Assembly (NCBI GenBank): GCA_965277405.1
Contig: OZ255726.1
Span: 887,128 to 951,127, forward strand
From: Gammaproteobacteria bacterium
GTDB lineage: Bacteria; Pseudomonadota; Gammaproteobacteria; G965277405
Length of the DNA stretch: 64,000 nt
Direction: 5' to 3'
Made by a program: the position numbers and the translations under genes. Shown here one piece after another: positions 9,189 through 63,170 of the stretch. The notes below the pieces were generated by a model. It made no database searches and had not been told where the DNA came from. It worked only from the letters and a program-made list of their open reading frames with translations. Each line of letters opens with the position of its first letter. The first letter of the stretch is position 1.

Positions 9189-9351
9189 GGAAGCTCTGAT
9201 TAACTCGCTAGTGGAGCGAGGTTGCCTGCAATTGCCGCGTATGTTGTGCTATACCTTGCTTGAATACTACAATACTGCATTTTTGGGATATTCTTTGTCG
9301 GGTTGTAGTGGTTTGCATAAATTGCTTTATAAGCAACTGATTCAGAACTTC
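9189..9351 (-). mobile_element. Diverged, internally deleted copy of the MITE family (about 163 bp). The R-type terminus is on the left.
   Basis: The left end GGAAGCTCTGATTAACTCGCTAGTGGAGCGAGGTTGCCTGCAATTGC matches the R terminus of the full copies. The right end is CTGATTCAGAACTTC. The flanks are CTAG / TTTA. Confidence 0.6.
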
Positions 9352-14364: not shown

Positions 14365-14647
14365 TGAAGCTCTGATTAATTCCATGATGGGCGAGACGGA
14401 GAAAAAACGCTGATGATAACTAGACGCAGCACTTGATAATACTGGTGGTATTATCAAGTGCTGCAACGACGTTAGCGCAGCGTTTTTTCCCGTCCTTCTG
14501 TTGAATATACAACGGTTTGATGGTAGCGGTACTTGCTGTGTTGCATCCCTTGGCGTATATGCTATGGCATGCGCCTGCGGAATGCGCCTTGCAATCATCA
14601 GCAATTGCCATCAAACTCGCCCCATCAGCGACTTAATCAGAGCTTCC
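14365..14647 (+). mobile_element. MITE copy 1 (283 bp) with a perfect 4-bp TSD TTAG
   Basis: About 30-bp TIRs (TGAAGCTCTGATTAATTCCATGATGGGCGAG ... CTCGCCCCATCAGCGACTTAATCAGAGCTTCC). TTAG occurs at 14361-14364 and 14648-14651. It is about 90-95% identical to copies 2-6. Confidence 0.85.
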
Positions 14648-22501: not shown

Positions 22502-22787
22502 GGAACCTCTGATTAATTCCATGATGGGCGAGACGGAGAAAAAACGCTGATGAAACTTAAGCGCAGTGCGCAGATAATACTGGTGGTATTATCAAGTGCT
22601 GCAACGACGTTAGCGCAGCGTTTTTTTTCCGTCCTTCTATTGAATATATGATGGTTTGCCTACAAGCGGTACTTGCTGTGTTGCATCCCTTGGCGTATAT
22701 GCTACGGCATGCGCCTACGGAATGCGCCTTGCAATCATCAGCAATTGCAGGCAAACTCGCTCCATCAGCAAGTTAATCAGAGGTTCC
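22502..22787 (+). mobile_element. MITE copy 2 (286 bp), inserted exactly at the pnp stop codon
   Basis: It has both TIRs. The flanks are CTAA (22498-22501, containing the pnp TAA) and CGAA, a 1-mismatch TSD. Confidence 0.85.
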
Positions 22788-23161: not shown

Positions 23162-23207
23162 GGAAACTCTGATTAAGTCGCTCCATGATGGGAAAATCAG
23201 AGTTTGC
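23162..23207. repeat. 46-bp mini-hairpin derived from the MITE termini (GGAAACTCTGATT...AATCAGAGTTTGC)
   Basis: A 13-bp inverted repeat matches the MITE TIR core and brackets a 20-nt TIR-derived loop. It lies between fis-like and gor, immediately upstream of the gor ATG. Confidence 0.6.
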
Positions 23208-25601: not shown

Positions 25602-25886
25602 GGAAGCTCTGATTAACTCGCTGATGGAGCGAGTTTGCCTGCAATTGCTGATGATTGCAAGGCGCATTTCGCAGGCGTATGCCGTAGCATATACGCCAAG
25701 GGATGCAACACAGCAAGTACCGCTTGTAGGCAAACCATCATATATTCAATAGAAGGACGGGAAAAAACGCTGCGCTAACGTCGTTACAGCACTTGATAAT
25801 ACCACCAGTGTTATCTGCGCACTGCGTCTAGTTATCATCAGCGTTTTTTCTCCGTCTCGCCCATCATGGACTTAATCAGAGCTTCC
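25602..25886 (-). mobile_element. MITE copy 3 (285 bp), in reverse orientation
   Basis: Both TIRs are present. The flanks are CTAG / TTTG with no TSD. It is about 95% identical to the reverse complement of copy 5. Confidence 0.85.
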
Positions 25887-41505: not shown

Positions 41506-42346
41506 CAATATATAGTTTATGTTGGTAGACATGGGCAGTTGCTGCAGCATAACCATGGACTTGACCACAGTCAAAACGCAGGCCACGGTGGCGCACGGCT
41601 ATGACTTTGCCTTGTGCCGCGAGTATCGCTAAAGCATCAGTTATTTGAATCTCTCCATGCTGTGTTGTTTTAATTTGCTTAGCTAACACTGCAAAAACTT
41701 CAGGTATAAGAATGTATCTACCAATGATCGCTAAATTTGATGGCGGGTTGTTGCTCGGTTTTTCAATCATGCTGTCGACGCGCAGTATGTCCTCATCAAT
41801 GGCTGTTGCGGTGACGATGCCATAATTATGCGTAGTTTGTATTGGCACTTCTTCAACGGCAATTACACAACATTGATGCGCAATATACGCAGCAATCATT
41901 TGCTGTAAAATTGAACTTGCAGCAACGCCTGTTGCCGTCAAGCATAAATCGTCAGCTAGAATAACTGCAAAAGGGTTGTCACCGATCAGTGAGGCACCAG
42001 TATATATAGCATGGCCGAGCCCAGCTATTATGCGTTGCCGAGTAAAGGAAAACGTACACGACTCCATCAGTTGCCGAATTGAAATCATGCTATTTTCTTT
42101 GCTGCTACCAGCGATTTGCTGATCTAGCTCAAAGTTACTATCAAAATAATTCATTACAGGTTCTTTATTGCGACCAAGCACAAAATGAATATTATGCACA
42201 CCTGCGTTTACCGCTTCTTCTACGGCAAAATGAATAAGCGGCTTATTGACGATTGGCAACATTTCTTTAGGCAGCGATTTCGTCGCAGGAAGAAACCGCG
42301 TGCCATATCCCGCAGCAGGGTATAAACAATGTTGAATTGCAGCCAT
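41498..42346 (-). CDS. galU: UTP-glucose-1-phosphate uridylyltransferase GalU
   Basis: The motif LYPAAGYGTRFLPATKSLPKEMLPIVNKPLI is GalU-like, and the protein is 282 aa. Confidence 0.9.
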   Translation of the reverse strand: MAAIQHCLYPAAGYGTRFLPATKSLPKEMLPIVNKPLIHFAVEEAVNAGVHNIHFVLGRNKEPVMNYFDSNFELDQQIAGSSKENSMISIRQLMESCTFSFTRQRIIAGLGHAIYTGASLIGDNPFAVILADDLCLTATGVAASSILQQMIAAYIAHQCCVIAVEEVPIQTTHNYGIVTATAIDEDILRVDSMIEKPSNNPPSNLAIIGRYILIPEVFAVLAKQIKTTQHGEIQITDALAILAAQGKVIAVRHRGLRFDCGQVHGYAAATAHVYQHKLYIDG

Positions 42347-43239
42347 TACGCAGTTGGTGTAGTTGATAGCAAAGACCAGTGTATTGGCACGGACACCTCA
42401 ATTGTTGCTGCTTTGCCGATCGGTTTAAAGCCGATGGTCTCTGCGTGTAAATGTAACCTACTGGCTGGAGTATTGCTGTATACAGAATCACCAATGACAG
42501 GATGTTGTGCGCTGGCACAATGACTGCGAATTTGATGGTTGCGACCTGTTATTGGGAATGCATGCAGCACACTGACAATCCCAAGCTCTGGGTCATGAAC
42601 AGTCTTTTGCTTGGTAAAGCGTGTAAGTGATTGCTTCCCCATGGGTTGAGATATACTCAAAGTTTGTCCAGATATAAATTGCTTGGTTAAGGGAATATCG
42701 ATTTCTCGCAAGTCATCAGGCCAGTCTCCGGCAACGACACAATTATATTGCTTGTAGACAGCGCGATGCTTAAGCTGCTGTTGCAATGCCAATAGTGCCG
42801 CACGGTTTTTTGAGATAAGCAGGCAACCTGAGGTGTCTTTATCGATTCTATGCACAAGTTCGTATTCGTTGTTCCATACTGTCCGCACCAGATTTATCAA
42901 GCCAAATTGATGACCAGAGCCACCATGCACAGGAATTCCAGCAGGCTTATTGACAACAATACACGCTTCATCTTCATACACAATTGCATCAATAACCCAA
43001 CTGCTGCGCTCAAAACTTGGTTGCATTGGGATATGCTGTTCAAGCCACGGAGGTAGGCGAATAATGTCTCCTGTAGCAACGCGTTGCATCGGTTTACAGC
43101 GCGACTTATTGCAACGCACTTGACCAGATCTGATTAGTTTGTAGATATTTGAGCGAGCCAGCGACCGCACTTTGCCTAATAAAAAATTATCCAGCCGTTG
43201 ACCATGATGCTGCGTATCAACAATCATGGTGTTACTCAT
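42346..43239 (-). CDS. rluC: 23S rRNA pseudouridine synthase RluC (RluA family with S4 domain)
   Basis: An S4 N-domain is followed by HRIDKDTSGCLLISK and a C-terminal GDSVY motif. The protein is 297 aa. Confidence 0.8.
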   Translation of the reverse strand: MSNTMIVDTQHHGQRLDNFLLGKVRSLARSNIYKLIRSGQVRCNKSRCKPMQRVATGDIIRLPPWLEQHIPMQPSFERSSWVIDAIVYEDEACIVVNKPAGIPVHGGSGHQFGLINLVRTVWNNEYELVHRIDKDTSGCLLISKNRAALLALQQQLKHRAVYKQYNCVVAGDWPDDLREIDIPLTKQFISGQTLSISQPMGKQSLTRFTKQKTVHDPELGIVSVLHAFPITGRNHQIRSHCASAQHPVIGDSVYSNTPASRLHLHAETIGFKPIGKAATIEVSVPIHWSLLSTTPTA

Positions 43240-44308
43240 CAGCTAGTCCGGCCATGAGTCGCGCTTGATGTTCTTGTTGCAAAGCAGTGATGGTTTCGTC
43301 TAAATCACCTTCGACAATAGTATCGAGTTTATACAGCGTTAAACCAATACGATGGTCTGTCATCCGTCCTTGGGGAAAGTTATAAGTACGGATTCGTTGC
43401 GACCGGTCACCACTACCGATTAAATTTCTACGTGTTTCTGCTTGTTGCTGATGCGCTTGCTGACGCTGCTGATCTTCGAGTCTTGCCCCAAGCAATGATA
43501 GCGCACGCGCTTTGTTTTTATGCTGTGAGCGCTCATCTTGACATTCAACGACAACGCCTGTTGGAACATGGGTGATGCGTATCGCAGAATCAGTGGTATT
43601 AACATGTTGCCCGCCAGCACCAGAAGAGCGAAAGGTATCAATGCGCAAGTCACTTTTGTCAATTTGTATTGCTAACTCTTCTGGTTCGACTAGTACAGCC
43701 ACTGTGCACGCCGATGTATGAATACGCCCTTGCGACTCAGTCGCTGGCACCCGTTGGACACGGTGTGCGCCTGATTCAAATTTCAAATGCCGATAAACAT
43801 CTTTTCCTTCAACCCGGGTGATAATTTCACGATAGCCTCCTTGTTCACTTTCGCTAATCGATACAACTTGCGTCGTCCAACGGTGTTGCTCAGCAAAACG
43901 CAGATACATCCGCTGCAGGTCAGCACAAAAAAGTGCAGCTTCGCTGCCACCAGTCCCTGCGCGGATTTCGACGAATACATTGGCGCCATCATCTTTATCT
44001 TTTGGTAACAATAGTGTTTTGATAGTCATTAATGTGTCGTCAATTCCATGTTGCAGGTCTTGCAGTTCCGTTACCGCAAGATTATGCATTTCTGCATCCG
44101 CTAATAATACAGATGTTGATTGGTGCTGCGCTTCAAAGCCTATATATGTCAACCATGCATTGTGGATTGGCTCTAAGTCGGCAATTTCTTGCATCAACGC
44201 CTTGTATACATCAATATCGTTAGTAATGTCTGGCTGTGCCAGCTGATTCGCAACAATGGTATGACGCTCTTCAAGAGCTTGGAGCCGATTGCGCAGTTGA
44301 TTATTCAT
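43232..44308 (-). CDS. prfA: Peptide chain release factor 1
   Basis: A GGQ motif (SGAGGQHVNTTDSAIRITHVPTG) and PxT-type RF1 features are present. It lies downstream of hemA. Confidence 0.92.
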   Translation of the reverse strand: MNNQLRNRLQALEERHTIVANQLAQPDITNDIDVYKALMQEIADLEPIHNAWLTYIGFEAQHQSTSVLLADAEMHNLAVTELQDLQHGIDDTLMTIKTLLLPKDKDDGANVFVEIRAGTGGSEAALFCADLQRMYLRFAEQHRWTTQVVSISESEQGGYREIITRVEGKDVYRHLKFESGAHRVQRVPATESQGRIHTSACTVAVLVEPEELAIQIDKSDLRIDTFRSSGAGGQHVNTTDSAIRITHVPTGVVVECQDERSQHKNKARALSLLGARLEDQQRQQAHQQQAETRRNLIGSGDRSQRIRTYNFPQGRMTDHRIGLTLYKLDTIVEGDLDETITALQQEHQARLMAGLADE

Positions 44309-45615
44309 GGTGTTGGTGTTTGCTGTTTGCTGTTTACGCTGGTAGCGGGTGGATGGATTGCAAAGAGGGTATGCGCTGCTTGCAAGAGTTGGGTATCGCC
44401 TTTCTTTCCGGCTTCACGCATTGCTACGGTTGGATGGTGGGCAATTTTTTGGATGAGCGCAGACGCCATCCGCTCGATGACGTATTTTGGATCATCTCCT
44501 CTGTTGAGCATAGTATATGCTTTGCGTATTTCTACATCTCGAACTGATTGTATATGTGCGCGAAATGGCCGCAACAATGCGTTATGATTGGTTTGATTGA
44601 TGCGCTGTTGCAGCTCATACATGGCTGTATTGATGATCAAGTGTGCGTGTTGAGCTGCTTGTTTGCGTAACTTACTGTTGCCTTCGATAATGGCTCCTAA
44701 GTCGTCAACACAATATAAAAATACATGGTCTATTGCAGCCACTTCATATTCAATATCACGCGGTACCGCTAAGTCAAAATACAGTTGAGTTGCATATTTT
44801 CGTTGTTTGCCTGCCTGCTCTACTTGCCCTTTTCCTACCAGCGGTAATGTGCTAGATGTTGCGCTGACTATAATATCTGCTTGGTGAAGTAGTTCAGGAA
44901 TTTCATACAGCGGGTAGGTGCTTCCCCCAGTTTTTTGCGCCAACCGCGTGCCACGAACACTACTGCGGTTGCATATCCAAGGAGGTGGACAGCCCAAATC
45001 TGACAGATATTGGGCGACCAAAACGATGGTATCGCCAGCACCAATAAGTAACACGCGTTTATTGTCAAATCTAGAGAATATATTTTTTGCCAATGAAACC
45101 GCTATATGGGCGACCGACATTGGTGATTGGCCAATTGCGGTGTTGTGACGAATGCGTTTAACAATATGGAATACAAACGGGATGACTGTAGCAAAAAAAT
45201 CCCCACAGTAATCAAGCTGCTTGGCGTGGTCGTACGCTGCTTTCATTTGCCCAAATATTTGCGGCTCACCGAGCGCCATCGATTCAAGACCGCAGGCAAC
45301 TATAATTAAGTGCCTAATTGCCTCGTCGCCAGTATAGCAATAATGGTCAGCAATTTTTTCGGCGACAACAAAGCGCAGCCACGTGTCAAGGATGCGTTGC
45401 AAGCAAACCTCAGTTGCCAACGTCTTGGCAACGATATACCACTCTATTCTATTGCAGGTTGATAGCACAAAACACTCATCAACGCCATGCTGTTGTAGTT
45501 CGGCGTATATCAACTCTATCGCAGCGGCATTTGGCAATAATCGCTCGCGCTGAGCAATATCTGTTTTGCGGTGATCTATGCCAACGATAAGGCATTGCAT
45601 ACTGTTGAGTTTCAT
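44305..45615 (-). CDS. hemA: Glutamyl-tRNA reductase HemA
   Basis: The N-terminus MKLNSMQCLIVGIDHRKTDI...LSTCNRIEWY has the catalytic Cys (CNR) and an NADPH domain. The protein is 436 aa. Confidence 0.9.
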   Translation of the reverse strand: MKLNSMQCLIVGIDHRKTDIAQRERLLPNAAAIELIYAELQQHGVDECFVLSTCNRIEWYIVAKTLATEVCLQRILDTWLRFVVAEKIADHYCYTGDEAIRHLIIVACGLESMALGEPQIFGQMKAAYDHAKQLDYCGDFFATVIPFVFHIVKRIRHNTAIGQSPMSVAHIAVSLAKNIFSRFDNKRVLLIGAGDTIVLVAQYLSDLGCPPPWICNRSSVRGTRLAQKTGGSTYPLYEIPELLHQADIIVSATSSTLPLVGKGQVEQAGKQRKYATQLYFDLAVPRDIEYEVAAIDHVFLYCVDDLGAIIEGNSKLRKQAAQHAHLIINTAMYELQQRINQTNHNALLRPFRAHIQSVRDVEIRKAYTMLNRGDDPKYVIERMASALIQKIAHHPTVAMREAGKKGDTQLLQAAHTLFAIHPPATSVNSKQQTPTP

Positions 45616-45626
45616 ACGTATGCTAA

Positions 45627-45910
45627 GGAACCTCTGATTAAGTCCATGATGGGCGAGACGGAGAAAAAACGCTGATGATAACTAGACGCAGTGCGCAGAT
45701 AATACTGGTGGTATTATTAAGTGCTGCAACGACGTTAGCGCAGCGTTTTTTCCCGTCCTTCTGTTGAATATACAACAGTTTGATGGTAGCGGTACTTGCT
45801 GTGTTGCATCCTTTGGCGTATATGCTACGGCATACGCCTGCGGAATGCGCCTTGCAATCATCAGCAATTACCATCAAACTCGCTCCATCAGCGACTTAAT
45901 CAGAGGTCCC
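45627..45910 (+). mobile_element. MITE copy 4 (284 bp) with a perfect TSD CTAA. It is inserted between the plsC stop and the hemA start.
   Basis: CTAA occurs at 45623-45626 and 45911-45914. The right TSD contains the plsC stop (TAG on the minus strand). The hemA ATG is 11 bp from the left end. Confidence 0.88.
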
Positions 45911-46630
45911 CTAATGAATGGAGCTACAAGTAGCTTCGATCCAGGTTCTTAGTTGTTGTGTTGCTAACTTACTATCTGGCATTGGTTGTATATGCGGACC
46001 AAAAATCACGCGGATAGTTCCAGGGTATTTAGTTATTTGATGCGCGGGCCAACGCGACCCAGCATTGTGTGCAAATGGAATAATTGGGCATTTGTTTTCA
46101 TGCGCCAGTTTTGTCGCGGTGCGGGTAAATGGTCCAAGTTCAGGTGCATAACGTCTGGTTCCTTCAGGGAAAATGAGTAAATTATGACCTTGAGATAAGT
46201 GGACACTTCCTTGCGCAATAACTTGGCGAAGTGCCTGTGTCTTATTTTTTCTAATCAGTGTTACTGGTTTGAGCAATGCTAATGCCCAACCAAATATTGG
46301 AATCCAAATCAGCTCATACTTTAATACACTGACCATTGGCATTGCAAATGATTGAATAACCAGTGTTTCCCATGGGCTTTGGTGGTTACCGGCAAACACA
46401 CAGGCACGATGCGCTTGCAATGCGGTGCGGATATGTTCTAAGCCATCGATTTGCATGGAAATATTGCAGCTGAGTTTTAGCCAAAATAACACAAACCGCG
46501 TGAGTACAGCAGGCACTATAAAGCGTTTTTTGAACGGCAGCATCCAACCAAATAGCAGCGATGCCACGCACACTATAGTGACCGCTACCACGTAGCCGAT
46601 ATAAAAAATTATTGAACGGAAAATCAACAT
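45911..46630 (-). CDS. plsC: 1-acyl-sn-glycerol-3-phosphate acyltransferase (PlsC family)
   Basis: The HX4D-type motif (NHQSPWE) and FPEGTR motif are present, along with an N-terminal TM segment. Confidence 0.8.
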   Translation of the reverse strand: MLIFRSIIFYIGYVVAVTIVCVASLLFGWMLPFKKRFIVPAVLTRFVLFWLKLSCNISMQIDGLEHIRTALQAHRACVFAGNHQSPWETLVIQSFAMPMVSVLKYELIWIPIFGWALALLKPVTLIRKNKTQALRQVIAQGSVHLSQGHNLLIFPEGTRRYAPELGPFTRTATKLAHENKCPIIPFAHNAGSRWPAHQITKYPGTIRVIFGPHIQPMPDSKLATQQLRTWIEATCSSIH

Positions 46631-46634
46631 TTAG

Positions 46635-46838
46635 AGAATCTCTGATGTAATTGCTAGTGAAACACTGTATGTGTCGCCAATTAGTTGCGGTAACATCGCC
46701 GCTACAACAGCAGGGCAAGATTTACTGTGAACGGCTGGTGTGCATGGGCTTGCCAAGGCAGCACCATTTACAGCAAACCGCCGTGCTTTTCAACCTGTAA
46801 AGTTGCCTCACACCCATCATGGGCTTAATCAGCGCTTC
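46635..46838 (-). mobile_element. Diverged older MITE copy (about 204 bp), between the yaaA stop and the plsC start
   Basis: The left end is AGAATCTCTGATGTAATTGC and the right end is CACCCATCATGGGCTTAATCAGCGCTTC, which matches the L-type TIR in reverse complement. The left flank TTAG lies directly after the plsC ATG. Confidence 0.6.
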
Positions 46839-46841
46839 TCT

Positions 46842-47618
46842 CTATACAGTAACAGGATGCCTGCGTAAAAACACCCAAGTATTGGCGGTGCTACGCTCAC
46901 ATGAAAAGCTATAGCTATCCATTGCGAATAACTGTAATTCTTCAATACTTGTAATATTATTTTCAGCCACAAAACGCACAAACCTGCCGCGTGCATGCTT
47001 TGCATACACGCCGATAGTTTTTACCACAGCGTTTTTTTCTTCTACAAATGAAATATTGATAACGTGGCGTTGTTGGCTTATTGCCTGCAAGTCGAGCGCT
47101 TTGGCGTATTCAATCGATGCTAAGTTGATAATTGCAGCGGTTGCTGCTGTTTGCTCAAGCAGCGTCTCGGTGAGTTGTTTCTTCCAGAAAGCGTATAAAT
47201 TACCACCTGCTGGATTTGGCATTTTAGCACCCATTTCTAGACGATACGGCATAATTCCATCGCTGGGACGCAGCAGCCCGTACAGCCCTGAAAGAATGCG
47301 CACATGGCTGTTGATGTACTCACGTCCAGCGGCATCGATTGTAGCAATATCAAGACCGCGGTATACATCTCCTTGGAACATCCAAATCGACTGGAAGCCA
47401 GCGCCAGCATCAACCGACCAGTTATTATGGTAGGACAGCGTGCGTTGCGCTACGGCAGGCGAAATCCCCAGCAACTGTTGTAAGTCATGCTGCGAATATT
47501 GACGCAATATTCCATGGAGCTGTTGTGCTTGTTGGCTAAATTCAGGAACCGTGGCTGCAGGAAGACCTGCGTGGAATTCCGTTCGCAGTTTTTTCGCTGG
47601 AGAAATCAGGAATTTCAT
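46842..47618 (-). CDS. yaaA: Peroxide stress protein YaaA (UPF0246/DUF328)
   Basis: The N-terminus MKFLISPAKKL is YaaA-like, and the protein is 258 aa. Confidence 0.85.
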   Translation of the reverse strand: MKFLISPAKKLRTEFHAGLPAATVPEFSQQAQQLHGILRQYSQHDLQQLLGISPAVAQRTLSYHNNWSVDAGAGFQSIWMFQGDVYRGLDIATIDAAGREYINSHVRILSGLYGLLRPSDGIMPYRLEMGAKMPNPAGGNLYAFWKKQLTETLLEQTAATAAIINLASIEYAKALDLQAISQQRHVINISFVEEKNAVVKTIGVYAKHARGRFVRFVAENNITSIEELQLFAMDSYSFSCERSTANTWVFLRRHPVTV

Positions 47619-48020
47619 TTGCTATACCATCGAGCAGTCTTCAAAATGAACAAACAAGCATTGCGCTTCGCTACGAATGCGTCGGGGGGCTATGTTGCCA
47701 CATTTGCTTAGGCTGTCATCGCTTTGACGCCAATTGTGTTGGATATTTACCAAGATATATTTGCTCGATAGATGTATTTGCTCGATAGCTGCCGCTAAAA
47801 TTCGAAAAACACCTGATATTTGTCCGTTATTCAGTACTCCAATGAGCTAATGCTGGCTGTAAAACTCCTTGCCAAGTTATTTTTTTAACAAAAAAAATAA
47901 TTTTTAGCAAATTTGTGCATTTTTGGTATCATGAACACGCTCAATATTGGTTTGCAACATTGCTGCGTCAAGAACATCAAATGTGGTCAGTTTTTCGAGA
48001 TTTGTTAGGGTATATTTAAA

Positions 48021-48887
48021 ATGAATGGAAAGTTTTTATATTACCAAGGTGTTTACGCAGAGGCAGAAAAATACCCATTTTTGCTGGCTCATGCGCTGCA
48101 TTATGCAACGTCCGTTTTCGAAGGGATACGAGTTTACAATGGCGCACCATTTTTGCTCGAAGAGCATCTCTCACGGCTGATAACCTCTTGCGAACTCATC
48201 GGCATTGATTGTCCGGCAACGGTCCAAGAACTATCCAAGATCTGCTACAACCTTATCGACAAGACTGGGGTGCAAAATGCCTACCTAAGACCGGTGGTAT
48301 TCAAAGGCGGTCCCGATCTTGGCGTGTATGCACCCAAAAACACGATTGAGTTAAGTGTCATCATCTGGGAATGGCCATCAGTCTTCGGCGCAGCTGCGGT
48401 TTCTAAGGGAATATCGCTAACTTCAGATATCCCTTATAGACGACCGCCACCAACGTGTTTTCCAACTCAAGCAAAGAGTTCAGCAGCGTATCTCATAGGC
48501 GCAATTAACCGGCAAAAAGCGGAAAACGACGGCTTCAATGACGCCCTACTTTTCACCCACGCAGGGATGGTTGCGGAAGCAACTGGCGCCAATATTTTTT
48601 TAGTCAATGGCAACACTGTTACTACACCACCTGCAAATGATTTCCTCAATGGCCTTACCCGCCAGACGGTGATTGGATTGCTGGCAAGCGGTCAAGTTGA
48701 GGAAAGAGAAATCACGTTGGATGATGTTAAATCGGCAGATGAGGTCTTTCTCACTGGCACTGCCTACGAAGTAATTGGCGTCTCAAAAATTGACGATTGT
48801 GAAAAATCCGTTGGTCAATTTACCAGCAACATTCGCAATGCCTACCTCAAACTTACCAAAACAACCAACCTTAAAGGCGCGGCCTGA
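48021..48887 (+). CDS. Class IV PLP-dependent aminotransferase (branched-chain / D-amino-acid aminotransferase family)
   Basis: The EGIRVY motif and 288-aa length fit the fold-type IV family (IlvE/Dat/PabC). Confidence 0.75.
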   Translation: MNGKFLYYQGVYAEAEKYPFLLAHALHYATSVFEGIRVYNGAPFLLEEHLSRLITSCELIGIDCPATVQELSKICYNLIDKTGVQNAYLRPVVFKGGPDLGVYAPKNTIELSVIIWEWPSVFGAAAVSKGISLTSDIPYRRPPPTCFPTQAKSSAAYLIGAINRQKAENDGFNDALLFTHAGMVAEATGANIFLVNGNTVTTPPANDFLNGLTRQTVIGLLASGQVEEREITLDDVKSADEVFLTGTAYEVIGVSKIDDCEKSVGQFTSNIRNAYLKLTKTTNLKGAA

Positions 48888-49085
48888 ACACGACAGAATG
48901 TATGATGGCTGCTAACACCAAAATTCGCAAAATTTACACGCTTGGCCCTGGAGGCACAAACTGCGCAGCAGCGGCTGCTGAACTCTGTCGATCTGGTGGA
49001 GTAGCAGCCTGTATACCAACATTACCTGCAGCCAAAGCCAAATGAAAAAGCACTTTCTGCACGACGCAAACCTGCGGGGCTGCTG

Positions 49086-50042
49086 ATGATAGGTATTAGT
49101 CACCCTTTTTCAAAACACATGCGGCTGTTGGCGCTGACGATCAGTATTCTTGCCTGCTTCACAGCAAGCTGGGTGTTGGCTAAAAACATCATCGAAAGTG
49201 CCCCTGCGTATGCTTCGGCTACCGGCCGGGTGTTGGCGACTAGTCTGTTCCTTTGGGCTTTTCTCCTACTCCGTCCTGGCGAACGCGTAAAGTCGATGGT
49301 AGTGTTGCGCCGCTGGCCAGCTATCATCGTATTAGCTTTGCTGGGTTTTGTCCTGTATTCGCTACTGACATTTCTCGCCTTGACGGTGCTAAATCCATCG
49401 GATCTGGGAATGACGCTGGCGCTTATACCTGGGTTTACCTACGTGCTTGGGTTGGCTTTTTTTAGCGACCAAATTCACCATCTCAAATTGCTCGGTGTTT
49501 CTTTGGCCAGCGGGGCGGCGCTATACTACACCACCAACGGCTTCCTAAGTTTGACAACAGCAGATGCTTTTGGAATCACAATGGCAGCGGGGGCGGCACT
49601 TAGCTATGCCCTGTATGGTTTAACGTATAAAAAGCTCATGGCAGACTTGCCCACAACAAGCGTGTTACCGTTTATCACTGCCGTTGCTTTCCTCATGTTG
49701 CTACCCTGGTTGCTGTTTGTCAGCCCAGCAGAAAGGTCAATTGACCTTTGGACAGCTGCTAAATTGCTGATGCTCGGTGCTGGGCTGTCTGCGCCAGTAT
49801 TCTTAATGTATCATGCCGTGCTTGATTTAGGCGGGGTGCTGTATGCAAATTCAATCGGAATTCTTGCGCCTTTTGCGATCTTACTCACCGAATGGGGCTG
49901 CGGCTATCGCAGTAGCGTCAGCCTAGGAGAACTAAGCGCGATGGCGATCTGTGCAGTCGGCGTCGCTTTAATTTTTAAAGACGCCGCCAGACCAAATCGC
50001 GTATCTGCGAACATCGCCGTATCTAACCGCCCCACTGATTAG
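49086..50042 (+). CDS. DMT-superfamily (EamA-like) transporter
   Basis: Ten predicted TM helices in two EamA-like halves. Confidence 0.7.
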   Translation: MIGISHPFSKHMRLLALTISILACFTASWVLAKNIIESAPAYASATGRVLATSLFLWAFLLLRPGERVKSMVVLRRWPAIIVLALLGFVLYSLLTFLALTVLNPSDLGMTLALIPGFTYVLGLAFFSDQIHHLKLLGVSLASGAALYYTTNGFLSLTTADAFGITMAAGAALSYALYGLTYKKLMADLPTTSVLPFITAVAFLMLLPWLLFVSPAERSIDLWTAAKLLMLGAGLSAPVFLMYHAVLDLGGVLYANSIGILAPFAILLTEWGCGYRSSVSLGELSAMAICAVGVALIFKDAARPNRVSANIAVSNRPTD

Positions 50043-50064
50043 GATAATTTAGGAGGAATACTAT

Positions 50065-50347
50065 GGAAGCTATGATTAAGTCCATGACGGGCGAGACGGA
50101 GAAAAAACGCTGATGATAACTAGACGCAGTGCGCAGATAATACTGGTGGTATTATCAAGTGCTGCAACGACGTTAGCGCAGCGTTTTTTTCCGTCCTTCT
50201 GTTGAATATATGATGGTTTGCTGCAGCGGTACTTGCTGTGTTGCATCCCTTGGCGTATATGCTACGGCATGCGCCTGCGGAATGCGCCTTGCAATCATCA
50301 GCAATTGCAGGCAAACTCGCTCCATCAGCGACTTAATCAGAGCTTCC
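50065..50347 (+). mobile_element. MITE copy 5 (283 bp) with a perfect TSD CTAT. It is inserted between the SD and start codon of the ATP-grasp gene.
   Basis: CTAT occurs at 50061-50064 and 50348-50351. The AGGAGG SD at 50051-50056 is now separated from the ATG (50350) by the element. Confidence 0.9.
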
Positions 50348-50349
50348 CT

Positions 50350-51615
50350 ATGGGCCTTACATTAGGGTTGGTCTGTCAGCGCAATAACAACGTGCCGTTC
50401 CTATTTGAAGCAGCGGCAGCCAATCGATGTGGTTTAGTACTTATTCACGCACCCGGTGAATCTCCCCCGACGCATATGCCAGCTGTTGTCCACACGTTGG
50501 AGCTCGACGTATTTGCTCATCCACAAGCCGCGCTCTCACAGCTTGAGGCTGAAAAAATCGGACTAGATGGCATATTAACCTGCCGTGAAGAGGCTGTGCC
50601 CTGGACTGCCTTAGCAGCCCAACGCCTCAAACTACCTGGACTCAACCCCGATGCGGCACTCATCACCCGCGATAAAGCACAGATGAGAAAAGCTTTTGCA
50701 GTGGCGGGGTTAAATGTTCCAAGCTATACCTCCCTGTCAGCAGACGCCCCAGTAACACTATCCGCTAGCATGTCATACCCGCTAGTCGTCAAACCCACAG
50801 GTGGCTACGCAAGCCAAGGTGTCATTCGCGTTGATAAAGCGAGTGATCTGAAAAATACAGTAGCTAAAGTGCGAGCAATCAATGCCAATGACCTCGACGC
50901 TTTCGCCACCACTACCAGCGGAATCAATTGGGGCGCTGTTATCGTTGAAGAGTATATCGACGGCCCCGAATATGCAGTAGAGGTGTTTGCAACCGAAGGG
51001 CGGGTACATGTACTCTCCATTGGTTACAAAGGCGAGCCCAAGGGTCCTTACTTTGAGGAGACAGTTTACCTCGCGCCACCACACCTCGCGCCAGCTACAC
51101 ATAAGGCAATTGTGGAGCAAGCAATTGGCGGCATGGAATCTTTAGGCCTTACTGACGGCCCAGGCCACTGCGAGTTAAGACTGCAAAATAGCACGAAACC
51201 CTATCTGCTTGAGATTGGAGCAAGGATCGGCGGGTCTGGGGTAAGCCAATTTATAGTACAGGAAAGTTCAGGAATTGATTATGCTGGCCTACAGTTCCGC
51301 CAGTCCGCCAAGTCCTCCCTTCCCGAACTTCCTGACATAGCGACGCCAATCGCGACTGCAGGAAACTGGATTATCCCACTCGGTGGTCATGGAAAATTGG
51401 TTGATATTGCAGGTCTACAAGTGGTTCATGAGCATCCAGAAACCAAGCGCGTGCTAACCTTCCTCGAACCTGGCACCGCTGTGCAACCCTATCCAATTTT
51501 CAGTGGGTATCCAGGTTTCGTGTTATCACGCCACACCGACTGGCAGTCTGGTATAGACTATCATCGCTGGCTCAGCCAAAAACTCCGTACACATTGGGTG
51601 GAGGTAGAAACTTAA
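50350..51615 (+). CDS. ATP-grasp domain protein (carboxylate-amine / L-amino-acid ligase-like)
   Basis: ATP-grasp motifs (PLVVKPTGGYASQGV...EEYIDGPEYAVE...ELRL...LLEIGARIGG). The start at 50350 is reconstructed from the pre-insertion site. The track ORF start at 50218 lies inside the MITE. Confidence 0.75.
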   Translation: MGLTLGLVCQRNNNVPFLFEAAAANRCGLVLIHAPGESPPTHMPAVVHTLELDVFAHPQAALSQLEAEKIGLDGILTCREEAVPWTALAAQRLKLPGLNPDAALITRDKAQMRKAFAVAGLNVPSYTSLSADAPVTLSASMSYPLVVKPTGGYASQGVIRVDKASDLKNTVAKVRAINANDLDAFATTTSGINWGAVIVEEYIDGPEYAVEVFATEGRVHVLSIGYKGEPKGPYFEETVYLAPPHLAPATHKAIVEQAIGGMESLGLTDGPGHCELRLQNSTKPYLLEIGARIGGSGVSQFIVQESSGIDYAGLQFRQSAKSSLPELPDIATPIATAGNWIIPLGGHGKLVDIAGLQVVHEHPETKRVLTFLEPGTAVQPYPIFSGYPGFVLSRHTDWQSGIDYHRWLSQKLRTHWVEVET

Positions 51616-51671
51616 ATCGCCTGTTAATCCTATGTTATCGCTATGCAGTTAGCAGATTATGCCGCTCTTAT

Positions 51672-51701
51672 TACATACTAATACATACTAATACATACTA
51701 T
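51672..51701. repeat. 10-bp x3 tandem repeat (ATACATACTA) in the convergent intergenic region between ATP-grasp and gatC
   Basis: Read directly from the sequence. Confidence 0.85.
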
Positions 51702-51982
51702 AAAATTTTCGGAACTGTATAAAAATGGTCAGTAACATAGGGATTATCCCTTTGCAGCTCTGCTCTGCTATGGTGTTTGGCAACAATATCTGCGCGCAAT
51801 GGCTGTGCTTGTTCCAATGGGGTGTGGAGGGGTTCTAACCCTGTCACGTCGATTGTTTTCATTGTTTCAATCATTTGTAAAACATTTTCAAGATCAGCGC
51901 TGAATGCGGCAGCTTGCTCATCACTCAGTTGAAGTTTTGCCAGTGTGCAGAGTTTTTGTATGTCGATATGTAACGGCGTCAT
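51698..51982 (-). CDS. gatC: Glu-tRNA(Gln)/Asp-tRNA(Asn) amidotransferase subunit C
   Basis: A 94-aa GatC-family protein. No gatA or gatB is adjacent. A MITE TIR-like 13-mer (GAACCTCTGATTT) lies 8 nt upstream of the start. Confidence 0.8.
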   Translation of the reverse strand: MTPLHIDIQKLCTLAKLQLSDEQAAAFSADLENVLQMIETMKTIDVTGLEPLHTPLEQAQPLRADIVAKHHSRAELQRDNPYVTDHFYTVPKIL

Positions 51983-51984
51983 AT

Positions 51985-52730
51985 TTAATGAACCTCTGAT
52001 TTAAAATGTTTACATGAATATCGCTGTGCTTGGACAGCTGTCATTGCGCTGGTCGCTATAATATCGTCAATACTGCAACCACGCGAGAGCTCATTCACTG
52101 GTTTGTTTGACCCTTGTAAAAAGGTCCAATCGCAGTCCCTCCGCCCATTCGCCCATTCGCCCATTAGTTGCGCAATTGTATCGCCACTATTCGCAACCTC
52201 TAGCGCTGGAAATATTAAAACATTGGCGCTGCATTGGCTGATTATTAACCAACCACAACCAATCACCATCAACAACCGCGTGCTATTGTGCCACGCTGGT
52301 ATGAATATGCAGTATATTTTTGCTTGTAAACTGTCGCAGCCATGAGTTTTGTGATCCCCAGCAATGGCACATATGCATGCGTCGCCGGGTAATTGCATGC
52401 TGCATGCAACAGATATTGTTCTTGTGTATCAATATAATCTTCTATAAACGGCGGATACCACAGCGGTAGTGGGTCGTAGCACGTAGTAAGCTGTTCAAGG
52501 TATGCGCTGCACCAATGCTGCCGTACATTTGTTTGCTTCCTTTTTACAGCACTTTGATAAACGCTTCTTGTATTGTCATTTGTATCATATACCGCTCCTG
52601 CTAAATAATTTCTCAGTAACGACCTATGGTCAATCAAGATAATGCGAGATTGAATAGCAACCGCGCAGCAACTGTACTGAATTTTGCACCATGCAGACAC
52701 ATCCAACAATAATTGCTGCGTAACTATCAC
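51985..52730 (-). pseudogene. Cys-rich hypothetical reading frame split over two overlapping ORFs (52269-52730 and 51985-52398). It is possibly a frameshifted remnant.
   Basis: The two ORFs lie in different frames and overlap by 130 nt. I recognise no family, and a (CGCCCATT)x3 repeat lies at 52142-52165. Confidence 0.25.
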
Positions 52731-52882
52731 GCTTGTCCAAACTCCCCCCAGCTACGAAAGCACCACCGCCCCATTAAAAAATCTATGCTGCATACCAACT
52801 ATCAACGCCTAAACTATAAATTCTAAATAGTTATGTCTCGCTTCACAATTGGTGCGGGCAAATACAATCCCAAAGCATCTAG

Positions 52883-53026
52883 GGAACCTCTGATTAAGTC
52901 CATAATGGGCGAAACGGAGCAAAAACGACGTGAGCACAGCGTTTTTCCTGTTCCTCTGTTGCATATACTGTTCAATATACAACGGTTTGGAGCAATTGCT
53001 GCATCAGCGCCTTAATTAGGACTTCC
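52883..53026 (+). mobile_element. Internally deleted MITE derivative (144 bp) retaining both termini
   Basis: The left end is GGAACCTCTGATTAAGTCCATAATGGGCGAAACGGAGCAAAAACG and the right end is ...GCGCCTTAATTAGGACTTCC. The flanks are CTAG / TTAA. Confidence 0.7.
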
Positions 53027-55002: not shown

Positions 55003-55294
55003 GGGATCTCTGATGAACTAGCTGACGGAATGAGTTTGCCTGCAATTGCTGATGATTACAAGGCGTAGAGCGCATGACCTAGCTATACGCCAAGGGATGC
55101 AATACAGCAAGCGTAAGCAATTGCCGCAAACCAAAAGTGTATTCAACACAACGACGGAGAAAAAACGCTGTGCTACCGTCGTTGCAGCACTTGGCAATAC
55201 CCACAGGACCCACCAATATTATCTGCGCACTGCGCTTAAGTTTCATCAAGCGTTTTTCTCCGTCTCGTCCAGCATGGACTGAATCAGAGCTTCC
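55003..55294 (-). mobile_element. MITE copy 6 (292 bp), in reverse orientation, between the monooxygenase and ureohydrolase genes
   Basis: Both TIRs are present (GGGATCTCTGATGAA... / ...GACTGAATCAGAGCTTCC). The flanks are CTAG / TTTA with no TSD. Confidence 0.82.
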
Positions 55295-61586: not shown

Positions 61587-63170
61587 ATGACCAAAATGCT
61601 TAAGCAATCTCTGATTACGTCGATAATTAGCAAGACGGGGCAACAAGATGATAATAATAGCCGCAGTACGCAGACAATACTGCTGGGTATTATCGAGTAC
61701 TTTAACGACCTTCGCGCAGCGCTGTTTGCCGCCGATGTGTTGAAGATACTGTTGGTTTACGGTACATGTTGTGTTACTCGCTTGGCGGATATGCTCAGGT
61801 CTGCGGTTTGCGCCTTGCAATCATCAGCAATTGCCATCAAGCTCGCCAATCAGCGCCTTAATCAGAGCTTCCTTAGAATACTAGCTATTTCTGCCACAGT
61901 ATTTGTCACATTGCCGGTTTTGGCAAAGGACACTCCTGTTACTTGGTGGTATGAACGCGCCACCCCTGAGCAACAAGCTGCACTGTCGGAACTGATGATT
62001 GATAAATTCAATGCTGCTGACAATGGCAACACTCTCACAATCGACTACCGTGGCAACGAATTGGATAAGCAGCTGCGGATTGCACTTTTATCAGGAACTG
62101 GTCCGGATGTAGTCAATACACCTGGTCCGTCTTTCGTGGCAACAATGGCACGCGCTGGGCAATTGCTGGCACTCGATGATATCGCTGTTAAAAAAGGCTG
62201 GAACGACCGAATCCTGCCATTCTTCATGGATTTGGGTCGGTTCGATGGCCATCTGTATGCGCTGCCAAAAACCTATGAAACACTTGGATTGTTCTACAAC
62301 AAAAAGGTCATGGCAGAGAATGGCTGGGCGGTACCTACAACTCTTGCAGAACTGACGACAGTTGCCGATGCAATGCTGTCTAAAAACATTATCCCATTTG
62401 GGTCTGGCAACTCGGACTGGCGTCCAGCCAACGAATTTCAGGTATCAATTGCTCTCAACTCCATCGCTGGTCCAGACAACATGCAAAAAGCGCTAACAGG
62501 TGAGTTGCCGTGGACGGCAGAACCTTTTGCCAAAGCCATCAATACACTAGATAGCTGGTGGAAAAAAGGCTATTTTGGACCTGACTACTTCTCACTCACC
62601 GGTGATCAGGTCATGGCTAACCTGGCTAATGGTTCTGCTGCGATGGTGCCAACCGGCACATGGAACTTCCAACTAGTCCCAGAATATTTTGGCGATCAAC
62701 TTGACAACATTGGTTTTGTAGGTTTTCCCAGCGGCGAAGGAGTGGCATACCCAATATACGCACTTGGCATTGGCTCCACACTCTCTATCGCGGCAAAAGC
62801 CAACAACCCTGAAGGTGCTGCCAACGTCATTGATTTTATCTTTAGTAAAGGTTTCTATCAGGACATGAACAGTGTTTGGCAAGGTGAGTGGAACATGCCG
62901 CTGCGTGACCTCAGCAACGTAAAACTGAGCGAAGATATCATCCCGCTGTATACGGAATCTATGGCTGCCTTGGCTGAATCCGTGAATCAAAGTCAATACG
63001 GTTACACTACTTGGACGTTCTTCCCTCCTGCAAGCAACTCTTACATTGTGAGTGGCATCGAGCAAGTTTGGCTGGATGATATTACTACCGAAGAATTCCT
63101 CGCAGAACTTGATGATATTTTCAAGCAGGAATTGGCTGAAGGCAAAGTCGCGGATATCCCTGCGCGTTAA
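61587..63170 (+). CDS. Periplasmic substrate-binding protein (SBP family 1) of a CUT1-type ABC importer. A MITE is inserted in frame inside its signal-peptide coding region.
   Basis: An SBP_bac_1-like mature domain is present. The ATG at 61587 follows an SD. Codons 1-5 (MTKML) are followed by a 91-codon MITE-derived insertion and then RILAISATVFVTLPVLA|KDTP. The frame stays open through the element. Confidence 0.75.
   Translation: MTKMLKQSLITSIISKTGQQDDNNSRSTQTILLGIIEYFNDLRAALFAADVLKILLVYGTCCVTRLADMLRSAVCALQSSAIAIKLANQRLNQSFLRILAISATVFVTLPVLAKDTPVTWWYERATPEQQAALSELMIDKFNAADNGNTLTIDYRGNELDKQLRIALLSGTGPDVVNTPGPSFVATMARAGQLLALDDIAVKKGWNDRILPFFMDLGRFDGHLYALPKTYETLGLFYNKKVMAENGWAVPTTLAELTTVADAMLSKNIIPFGSGNSDWRPANEFQVSIALNSIAGPDNMQKALTGELPWTAEPFAKAINTLDSWWKKGYFGPDYFSLTGDQVMANLANGSAAMVPTGTWNFQLVPEYFGDQLDNIGFVGFPSGEGVAYPIYALGIGSTLSIAAKANNPEGAANVIDFIFSKGFYQDMNSVWQGEWNMPLRDLSNVKLSEDIIPLYTESMAALAESVNQSQYGYTTWTFFPPASNSYIVSGIEQVWLDDITTEEFLAELDDIFKQELAEGKVADIPAR
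61604..61872 (+). mobile_element. Diverged MITE copy (269 bp) inserted in frame within the SBP gene. Flanks are TTAA / TTAG.
   Basis: The left end is GCAATCTCTGATTACGTCGATAAT...GACGGGGCAACAAGATGATAATAATAGCCGCAGTACGCAGACAATACTGCTGGGTATTATCGAGTAC. The right end ...GCGCCTTGCAATCATCAGCAATTGCCATCAAGCTCGCCAATCAGCGCCTTAATCAGAGCTTCC aligns along the full length of the family consensus. Confidence 0.8.

Follow-up and report, generated by a model that had tools for sequence, protein, structure and literature searches.

A miniature IS5-type element inserted between the Shine-Dalgarno sequence and the start codon of an ATP-grasp gene that may still be in use

The locus and its empty site

The DNA analysed here is a stretch of 64,000 nucleotides from a gammaproteobacterial contig (OZ255726.1), hereafter the window, and our interest in it centers on a 283-bp transposable element of the miniature inverted-repeat type (MITE) that lies between the Shine-Dalgarno sequence (SD) and the start codon of a gene for an ATP-grasp protein. 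The product of this gene is predicted to be like an L-amino-acid ligase. It follows a gene for an EamA-family transporter, an order that is kept in the homologous loci L001-L004, L006 and L007, and the open reading frames (ORFs) of both genes are intact in the window. The coordinates of all features are collected in Table 1.

Read from left to right, the locus runs TTAGGAGGAATACTAT / GGAAGCTATGATTAAGTCC ... GCGACTTAATCAGAGCTTCC / CTATGGGCCTTACA. The terminal inverted repeats of the element read GGAAGCT(A/C)TGATTAAGTC, and the left end is identical to the reverse complement of the right end at 17 of 18 bases. Each end abuts a copy of a CTAT target-site duplication, and both copies contribute to a start codon. 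On the right, the ATG of the ATP-grasp gene at 50350 is made of the AT of CTAT and G50352, which places the GAG of the right terminal repeat at -10 to -8 relative to this ATG. On the left, the AT of CTAT and the first G of the element make another ATG, 6 nt past the SD, from which a chimeric ORF of 16 codons can be read. The consensus of the MITE family holds only the shorter ATGATGGGCGAGACGGAGAAAAAACGCTGA in place of this ORF, and we saw no evidence of a coding role for it. The SD itself is followed directly by the spacer AATACT, and deletion of 50065-50351 leaves the junction TTAGGAGGAATACTATGGGCCTTACATTAGGG. All that an earlier note on this DNA had stated about the sequence, namely the element, the CTAT duplication, the AGGAGG, the ATG and the junction ORF that the displaced SD now precedes, holds when checked base by base.

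Several lines of evidence identify the native start. Thirteen ATP-grasp homologues begin at the same alignment column as ATG 50350 (for example MSFTLGLVCQRNNN and MSLTIGLVCQRNNN), and the Pfam ATPgrasp_N domain begins at residue 19 of the protein. Judged by these alignments, the native start is ATG 50350. A longer protein with its N-terminus within the element, read from the in-frame codons TTG 50218 or ATG 50266, was considered and rejected as the main product because the homologues begin at 50350; neither of the two codons has an SD, and 44 open codons would arise by chance about 12% of the time. The longest ORFs inside the MITE, on both strands, have 50-64 codons.

Evidence for an insertion comes from loci where the element is missing. 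L001-L004 lack it at the orthologous site, and in the two lineages outside the species that were found to be closest, L001/L002 (...GGATAATTTGGAGTAAATACCATGAGTTTC...) and L006, the SD and the ATG are contiguous. The ATP-grasp proteins of these two lineages are 81% (L001 lineage) and 77% identical to that of the window. When the element and one duplication are excised, the window aligns without gaps across the junction to both lineages (window GGATAATTTAGGAGGAATACTATGGGCCTTACATTAGGG, L001 GGATAATTTGGAGTAAATACCATGAGTTTCACATTAGGG; at the position homologous to the SD, L001 has GGAG), so that the SD-ATG arrangement reconstructed in the earlier note is matched by real empty sites. An exact 22-mer of the reconstructed site had no match in the JGI metagenomes. 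We regard it as nearly certain that the MITE was inserted between the SD and the ATG.

The reconstructed distance from the EamA stop codon to the ATP-grasp start is 20 bp, compared with 23 bp in L006 and 109 bp in L001. Given this short gap the two genes look co-transcribed, with no promoter in the disrupted spacer, and the pair is most simply, and probably, an operon. The claim that the insertion had moved a promoter away from the gene as well is therefore difficult to uphold. A promoter scan of 49800-50600 returned a single weak site (50113-50141), no better than those in shuffled sequences, and none in the right half of the element, thus we claim no promoter carried by the element. A terminator scan of the same region gave no sites; the long internal hairpin nevertheless looks, as folded, like a bidirectional terminator. 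No Rfam family was matched in 49000-51500 at E-values up to 1, so the MITE is not a known leader or small RNA (sRNA). As a separate observation, L001 (5846-5949) and L002 carry another insertion, about 104 bp long and close to the EamA 3' end, roughly 45 bp upstream of the site studied here. It has inverted ends (TAGAGCAAATTC / GAATCTGCTCTA), lies at a CTA site and alters the C-terminus of EamA.

Age of the insertion and selection since

Within the species the comparison is with one other strain, represented by a 17-kb conspecific contig (L008; ENA ERZ26859071 contig_5), and no empty site was found there. This contig is 98.87% identical to window positions 42214-52901, over 10.7 kb. It shares the element, the CTAT duplication, the orientation and a private C-to-A change in the left repeat, which means that the insertion predates the split of the two strains. 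On these alignments, the insertion is shown to be younger than the split from the L001 lineage and older than the split of the 98.9%-identical strains. The earlier note had called the transposition recent. This is overstated, given that the insertion is common to both strains and that the copy is 92-96% identical to its closest sisters in the window.

This shared ancestry allows the differences between the two strains to be used as a record of selection, all of them being taken to post-date the insertion. For the ATP-grasp gene we count 15.5 non-synonymous and 17.5 synonymous differences, a ratio of non-synonymous to synonymous rates (dN/dS) of 0.29, and for EamA 9 and 13 (dN/dS 0.24). Seven neighbouring genes pooled give 9 and 24 (dN/dS 0.11). 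One-sided binomial comparisons with neutrality gave p = 2e-4 for ATP-grasp, 9e-4 for EamA and 8e-7 for the two genes pooled. The ratio for the EamA and ATP-grasp pair is about 0.27, significantly below 1, and this argues that selection on the proteins continued after the insertion. From these substitution patterns, expression of the ATP-grasp gene probably persists in the window strain. Taken together, the claim that the MITE was inserted and the gene has remained in use is one that we hold to be just about probable.

The sister strain itself presents a less orderly picture. In L008 (7083-9404) EamA carries a nonsense codon, W57* (TGG-to-TAG, equivalent to window 49255), and the ATP-grasp gene has an additional C at codon 4 (window 50358). 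Either the pair is decaying in that strain or these are errors of the assembly. The 467-aa ORF called there (P0121) was rejected as a longer native protein, since it arises because the +1 frameshift joins an ORF of the element to the ATP-grasp gene. Synonymous divergence between the strains is 0.055 in the EamA/ATP-grasp segment (49086-51615) and 0.018 in the seven neighbours (42214-49000), about a threefold difference. Along the 10.7 kb the divergence is patchy, as expected with recombination.

Within the 283 bp of the element the two strains differ at six positions (2.1%), all of them in the central 49 bp (50172-50220). The arms (50065-50171 and 50221-50347, 234 bp) are invariant, and the flanks differ by about 2.5% right up to the borders; other element copies that the strains share evolve faster than their own flanks. 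The invariant arms fit a constraint on the hairpin, which is suggestive only. Two other repeats were seen in this comparison. At 52139-52165 the window has three tandem copies of CGCCCATT, with one unit fewer in L008, and at 12205-12265 of L008 a 12-bp unit, GGGTGCTTACAT, is repeated about five times.

The element family and its IS5-type ends

The copy at 50065 is one of many. The 18-mer end has 17 matches with at most three mismatches in the window, compared to 0.04 expected from shuffled sequences, and seven copies of 269-292 bp align end to end with a mean column identity of 82%. With the addition of the short or diverged copies, of which there are at least four (near 9189, 23162, 46632-46839 and 52883), the family has at least 11 members in 64 kb and accounts for roughly 4% of the window. 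Three copies lie in the 17 kb of L008. The target duplications still visible are CTAT (50065), TTAG (14365), CTAA (45627) and TTA (61604), and three other, older copies have none. The terminal repeats, the duplication and the multi-copy family thus bear out the identification of the element as a MITE.

The relation to the IS5 family is seen most directly in a 1230-bp element of L008 (10664-11893), which has GGAAGCTCTGATTAAGTC at its left end and 16 of these bases inverted at its right end. Its transposase is broken into three ORFs with Pfam DUF772 and DDE_Tnp_1 domains, and the fragments cover positions 5-85, 109-182 and 190-285 of the 285 positions of NCBIfam NF033581 ('IS5 family transposase'). 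Annotated IS5-family transposases encoded on plasmids share about 60% identity with the N-terminal fragment. The MITE and this partner share ends that start with GGAAG; their interiors have no detectable similarity, and thus the MITE is not a simple deletion derivative of the 1230-bp element. IS5-family elements produce 4-bp duplications at YTAR targets. The duplication here is likewise 4 bp long, and TTAG and CTAA fit YTAR, whereas the CTAT of the 50065 copy deviates at the last base; compared with the known YTAR, the targets seen here fit YTAN. By every structural criterion tested, the sequence is that of a non-autonomous IS5-family MITE.

Searched in one genome per species, the 18-mer end occurs at more than 110 loci in many phyla, and such ends can be regarded as generic to IS5-type elements. 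Among the matches listed L069 alone showed further similarity, 29 bp at the left end (E = 3e-4). None of the listed loci had the interior of the MITE, which was found in L008, and an exact 24-mer from it had no match in the JGI metagenomes. In the collections searched, the sequence family of the MITE was met nowhere else, and its interior was found only in the host species. Two observations concern the 1230-bp element in its own right. It occupies the same site in L008 (…CAAAGCATCTAG|GGAA…) as the short element of about 143 bp (52883-53025) does in the window, and downstream of this point the two strains lose their collinearity. In L008 a sequence of about 200 bp stands on either side of the element, in two diverged copies.

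The targets of the family may also account for where its copies lie. YTAR targets contain TAA or TAG, so that stop codons attract insertion, as do, in a compact genome, the starts of the genes that follow them. In the string yaaA-plsC-hemA-prfA an element stands in two successive junctions. Ahead of plsC and gor, the CAGAG or CAGAGG of the repeat is spaced from the ATG as an SD would be; for hemA it is farther upstream. Ahead of gatC, on the minus strand, there is a solo remnant of a terminal repeat (TTAAATCAGAGGTTCATTAAAT-ATG, 51983-52005), whose GAGG is the only SD-like motif before that gene (-6.5 kcal/mol); it has the appearance of a repeat end that was domesticated. With 2.17 Mb, 45% G+C and a high load of the family's elements, the source contig has the profile of a host-restricted or otherwise reduced genome. 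RF1 of the host is about 60% identical to that of its best named relatives (Saccharospirillum, Halomonas and Endozoicomonas), and on this comparison the host, an uncultured marine-type gammaproteobacterium, is divergent.

Table 1. Features of the EamA/ATP-grasp locus and copies of the MITE family in the window
Feature	Coordinates	Strand	Remarks
EamA-family transporter gene	49086-50042	+	Pfam EamA; upstream partner of the ATP-grasp gene
Native SD of the ATP-grasp gene	50051-50056	+	AGGAGG; now 293 nt upstream of the ATG
Target-site duplication, left copy	50061-50064	+	CTAT
Chimeric ORF, 16 codons and stop	50063-50113	+	MEAMIKSMTGETEKKR; ATG GAA GCT ... CGC TGA, stop 50111-13
MITE	50065-50347	+	283 bp, IS5-type ends, without a transposase ORF
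Left terminal inverted repeat	50065-50082	+	GGAAGCTATGATTAAGTC
Internal long hairpin (predicted)	50096-50195	+	Fold -46.3 kcal/mol; A-run GACGGAGAAAAAACGCTG pairs with U-run CAGCGTTTTTTTCCGTC at the base
Right terminal inverted repeat	50330-50347	-	GGAAGCTCTGATTAAGTC on the minus strand; GACTTAATCAGAGCTTCC on the plus strand
Target-site duplication, right copy	50348-50351	+	CTAT; its AT is bases 1-2 of the start codon
ATP-grasp gene	50350-51615	+	421 aa; ATPgrasp_N, ATP-grasp_4 and LAL_C2; ORF intact
Sister copy	14365-14647	+	Duplication TTAG
Sister copy	22502-22787	+	Begins directly past the pnp TAA stop codon
Sister copy	25602-25886	-	Opposite orientation; nearest relative of the 50065 copy (95-96%)
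Sister copy	45627-45910	+	Duplication CTAA; plsC stop 0 nt and hemA ATG 11 nt away
Diverged sister copy	55003-55294	-	
Diverged sister copy	61604-61872	+	Duplication TTA
Short variant, about 143 bp	52883-53025	+	Same ends
Mini-element, 45 bp	23162-23206		Ends 2 nt before the gor ATG
Diverged copy	46632-46839		yaaA stop 2 nt and plsC ATG 4 nt away

Translation across the element and comparison with known systems

If the gene is still in use, the question becomes how a ribosome would reach its start codon. The native AGGAGG pairs with the anti-SD at -10.2 kcal/mol, among the strongest of the 48 ORF starts in the window, whose median is -1.2 kcal/mol and of which about 10% reach -6.5 kcal/mol or lower; the statistics use the first in-frame start of each ORF, and some of these are wrong (e.g. 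53132). The RNA of the MITE is predicted to fold with a minimum free energy of -121.7 kcal/mol into a structure that the terminal repeats close (the pair 50065-50347 has a probability of 0.95), and the element with its flanks folds more strongly than shuffled sequences (z = -5.2). In this prediction positions -15 to -3 of the ATP-grasp ATG are fully paired, the region downstream of the AUG is largely unpaired, and the closed helix leaves 8 nt (AAUACUAU) after the SD and 2 nt (CU) before the AUG.

These features suggest a route that we prefer but put forward tentatively. The MITE transposed into the 20-bp spacer between EamA and ATP-grasp, duplicating CTAT, and the ATP-grasp gene is probably still co-transcribed with EamA and translated from its native AUG. 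Once transcribed, the element would fold back on itself with the terminal repeats as the closing helix (G50065-C50347). As 8 and 2 nt remain outside this helix, the SD would lie about 10 nt from the AUG through space, and the same helix would bury the competing junction AUG at 50063. What we infer is thus a split ribosome-binding site in which the hairpin acts as a bridge and reduces the spacing from 293 to about 10 nt. This specific route, which depends on a modelled fold, we rate as doubtful. As a fallback, translation could begin without a strong SD, as appears to happen commonly in the host genome. Other copies of the family are tolerated next to starts, 4 nt before the ATG of plsC, 11 nt before that of hemA and 2 nt before that of gor. 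A broader version of the idea, in which the transcript of a near-palindromic MITE removes itself topologically because its zipped repeats rejoin the flanks with an offset equal to the length of the target duplication, is unlikely on present modelling. If it were true, a MITE between an SD and its AUG, or between translationally coupled genes, would be far less harmful than a non-palindromic insert of the same length, and this would explain both the accumulation of the family at start codons in a compact genome and the arms of the 50065 copy being invariant between strains.

The earlier note had proposed that the gene was either silenced or now dependent on sequences inside the element, and both possibilities need to be weighed. 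Under silencing, the insertion would have ended translation of the ATP-grasp gene by taking away the one strong ribosome-binding site it had and hiding positions -15 to -3 in a helix, the pair would be dispensable and decaying, and the window strain would simply have no disabling mutation yet. The nonsense codon and frameshift in L008 fit this well, as does the dN of the pair, which is the highest along the 10.7 kb that the strains share. The fold prediction has the right arm fully paired just ahead of the AUG, the GAG that remains there binds the anti-SD at -2.1 kcal/mol compared to -10.2 for the native motif, and with about 17 substitutions on the window branch we estimate that an ORF would stay intact by chance about half the time. 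However, a dN/dS of 0.27 is significantly less than 1 with all the substitutions counted as post-insertion, which argues that the gene is probably not dead. The L008 lesions are single events in one assembly and possibly errors, and copies of the same family also adjoin the starts of plsC, hemA and gor; it cannot be that all three of these genes are dead. We therefore see silencing as possible but doubtful. As for the regulatory consequence that the earlier note saw in the insertion, none is demonstrated, and the substitution patterns point to continued selection on the protein.

Dependence on the element would require an outward promoter in its right half together with the GAG of the right repeat as a weak SD, exposed when ribosomes translating the junction ORF of 16 codons open the helix or when RNase III cuts it, as happens in the Correia elements of Neisseria. 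CAGAG or CAGAGG is placed at SD distance for ATP-grasp in the same way as for gor and plsC (farther upstream for hemA), the solo remnant is placed likewise for gatC, and the energies for hemA and gatC reach -6.5 kcal/mol. When 50048-50125 is constrained to stay single-stranded, part of the right arm comes free in the predicted fold, and for other MITEs there are documented cases of promoters and of processing by RNase III (PMC10969869). On the other hand, the lone weak promoter site lies upstream of the internal hairpin, the 50065 copy reads GAGC rather than GAGG, and with the left arm held open the GAG and AUG are predicted to be still largely paired. We consider this explanation improbable. 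The 283 bp might finally be thought an ancestral structured leader, such as a riboswitch or attenuator, given its strong structure and its presence in both strains of the species, or an artefact of assembly. A conserved ancestral 5' untranslated region was looked for in the related genomes, and L001-L004 and L006 lack the element at the orthologous site. In the window there are the dispersed copies, target duplications among them, whose ends are shared with a transposase-bearing element and for which Rfam has no match, and the element is present in two independent assemblies. With the empty sites and the dispersed copies this reading can be taken as already refuted, and we give it practically no weight.

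There are also results that weigh against continued use of the gene or against the bridge, and these should be kept in view. The dN/dS of the pair is higher than that of its neighbours (0.27 and 0.11); the difference is not significant (Fisher p = 0.12), so we do not call the pair clearly relaxed relative to them. The L008 lesions, W57* and the added C, fit relaxed selection after silencing. The divergence of the element (2.1%) is below the synonymous divergence of its flanks (5.5%), and if the element arrived later in one strain by recombination, some substitutions would be older than the element and the selection argument would be weaker. A model in which the pair was neutral for 40% of the time predicts a dN/dS of about 0.45, which is only marginally excluded (p about 0.04, from arithmetic on the counts). 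Given that the first-start calls are partly wrong, the use of SD sequences in this genome is underestimated. For the bridge itself, a hairpin of 283 nt is more than ten times the length of the T4 precedents discussed below, the left arm would be melted by ribosomes that begin at the junction AUG, and the internal hairpin could end transcripts before they reach the ATP-grasp gene.

Whichever explanation holds, the locus is a natural experiment on how much displacement a ribosome-binding site can tolerate, in that a strong SD was moved 293 nt by one dated event with purifying selection continuing. Should the gene have been silenced, the locus would record how a MITE starts the decay of an operon, and the sister strain would show what follows. 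If instead the bridge operates, it would offer a simple physical reason for the tolerance of palindromic mobile elements inside the operons of reduced genomes.

A functional likeness to the bridge is found in genes 38 and 25 of phage T4, where RNA structure cuts the distance between SD and AUG to 5 nt (from 22 nt) in gene 38 and to 11 nt (from 27 nt) in gene 25 (PMC3014915). The likeness lies in a structure that brings a distant SD near the AUG, which at the present locus is predicted only. The T4 hairpins are short and evolved in place, whereas here the hairpin would be a 283-nt transposon gained in one event. Among mobile elements, the Correia elements of Neisseria have 26-bp repeats, a TA duplication, defined promoters and a site for integration host factor (IHF). 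They differ from this MITE in the length of the duplication (4 bp here), in their promoters (no strong one was found in this MITE), in the transposase lineage and in the host, Neisseria being unrelated to this gammaproteobacterium; the likeness is functional only, and the two are set apart here by these general traits. Correia elements are small, have inverted-repeat ends and are abundant near gene starts and inside operons, and their transcripts form hairpins that are cleaved by RNase III and can alter the expression of downstream genes (PMC10969869).

Other families of this kind, such as ERIC, BOX, RUP and SPRITE in enterobacteria and pneumococci, are intergenic, structured, multi-copy and co-transcribed, and affect the stability or termination of mRNA (PMC10969869). 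They are different sequence families, and none is reported in that review to lie between an SD and a start codon. The same review names six kinds of effect that MITEs have on expression, through promoters, IHF sites, RNase cleavage, gene disruption, sRNAs and terminators (PMC10969869), and separation of an SD from its start codon is not among these six. The novel part of this locus would be the hairpin-bridge reading, and if such a bridge does operate here, the split-site principle known from T4 would be extended from hairpins of about 20 nt to whole transposons.

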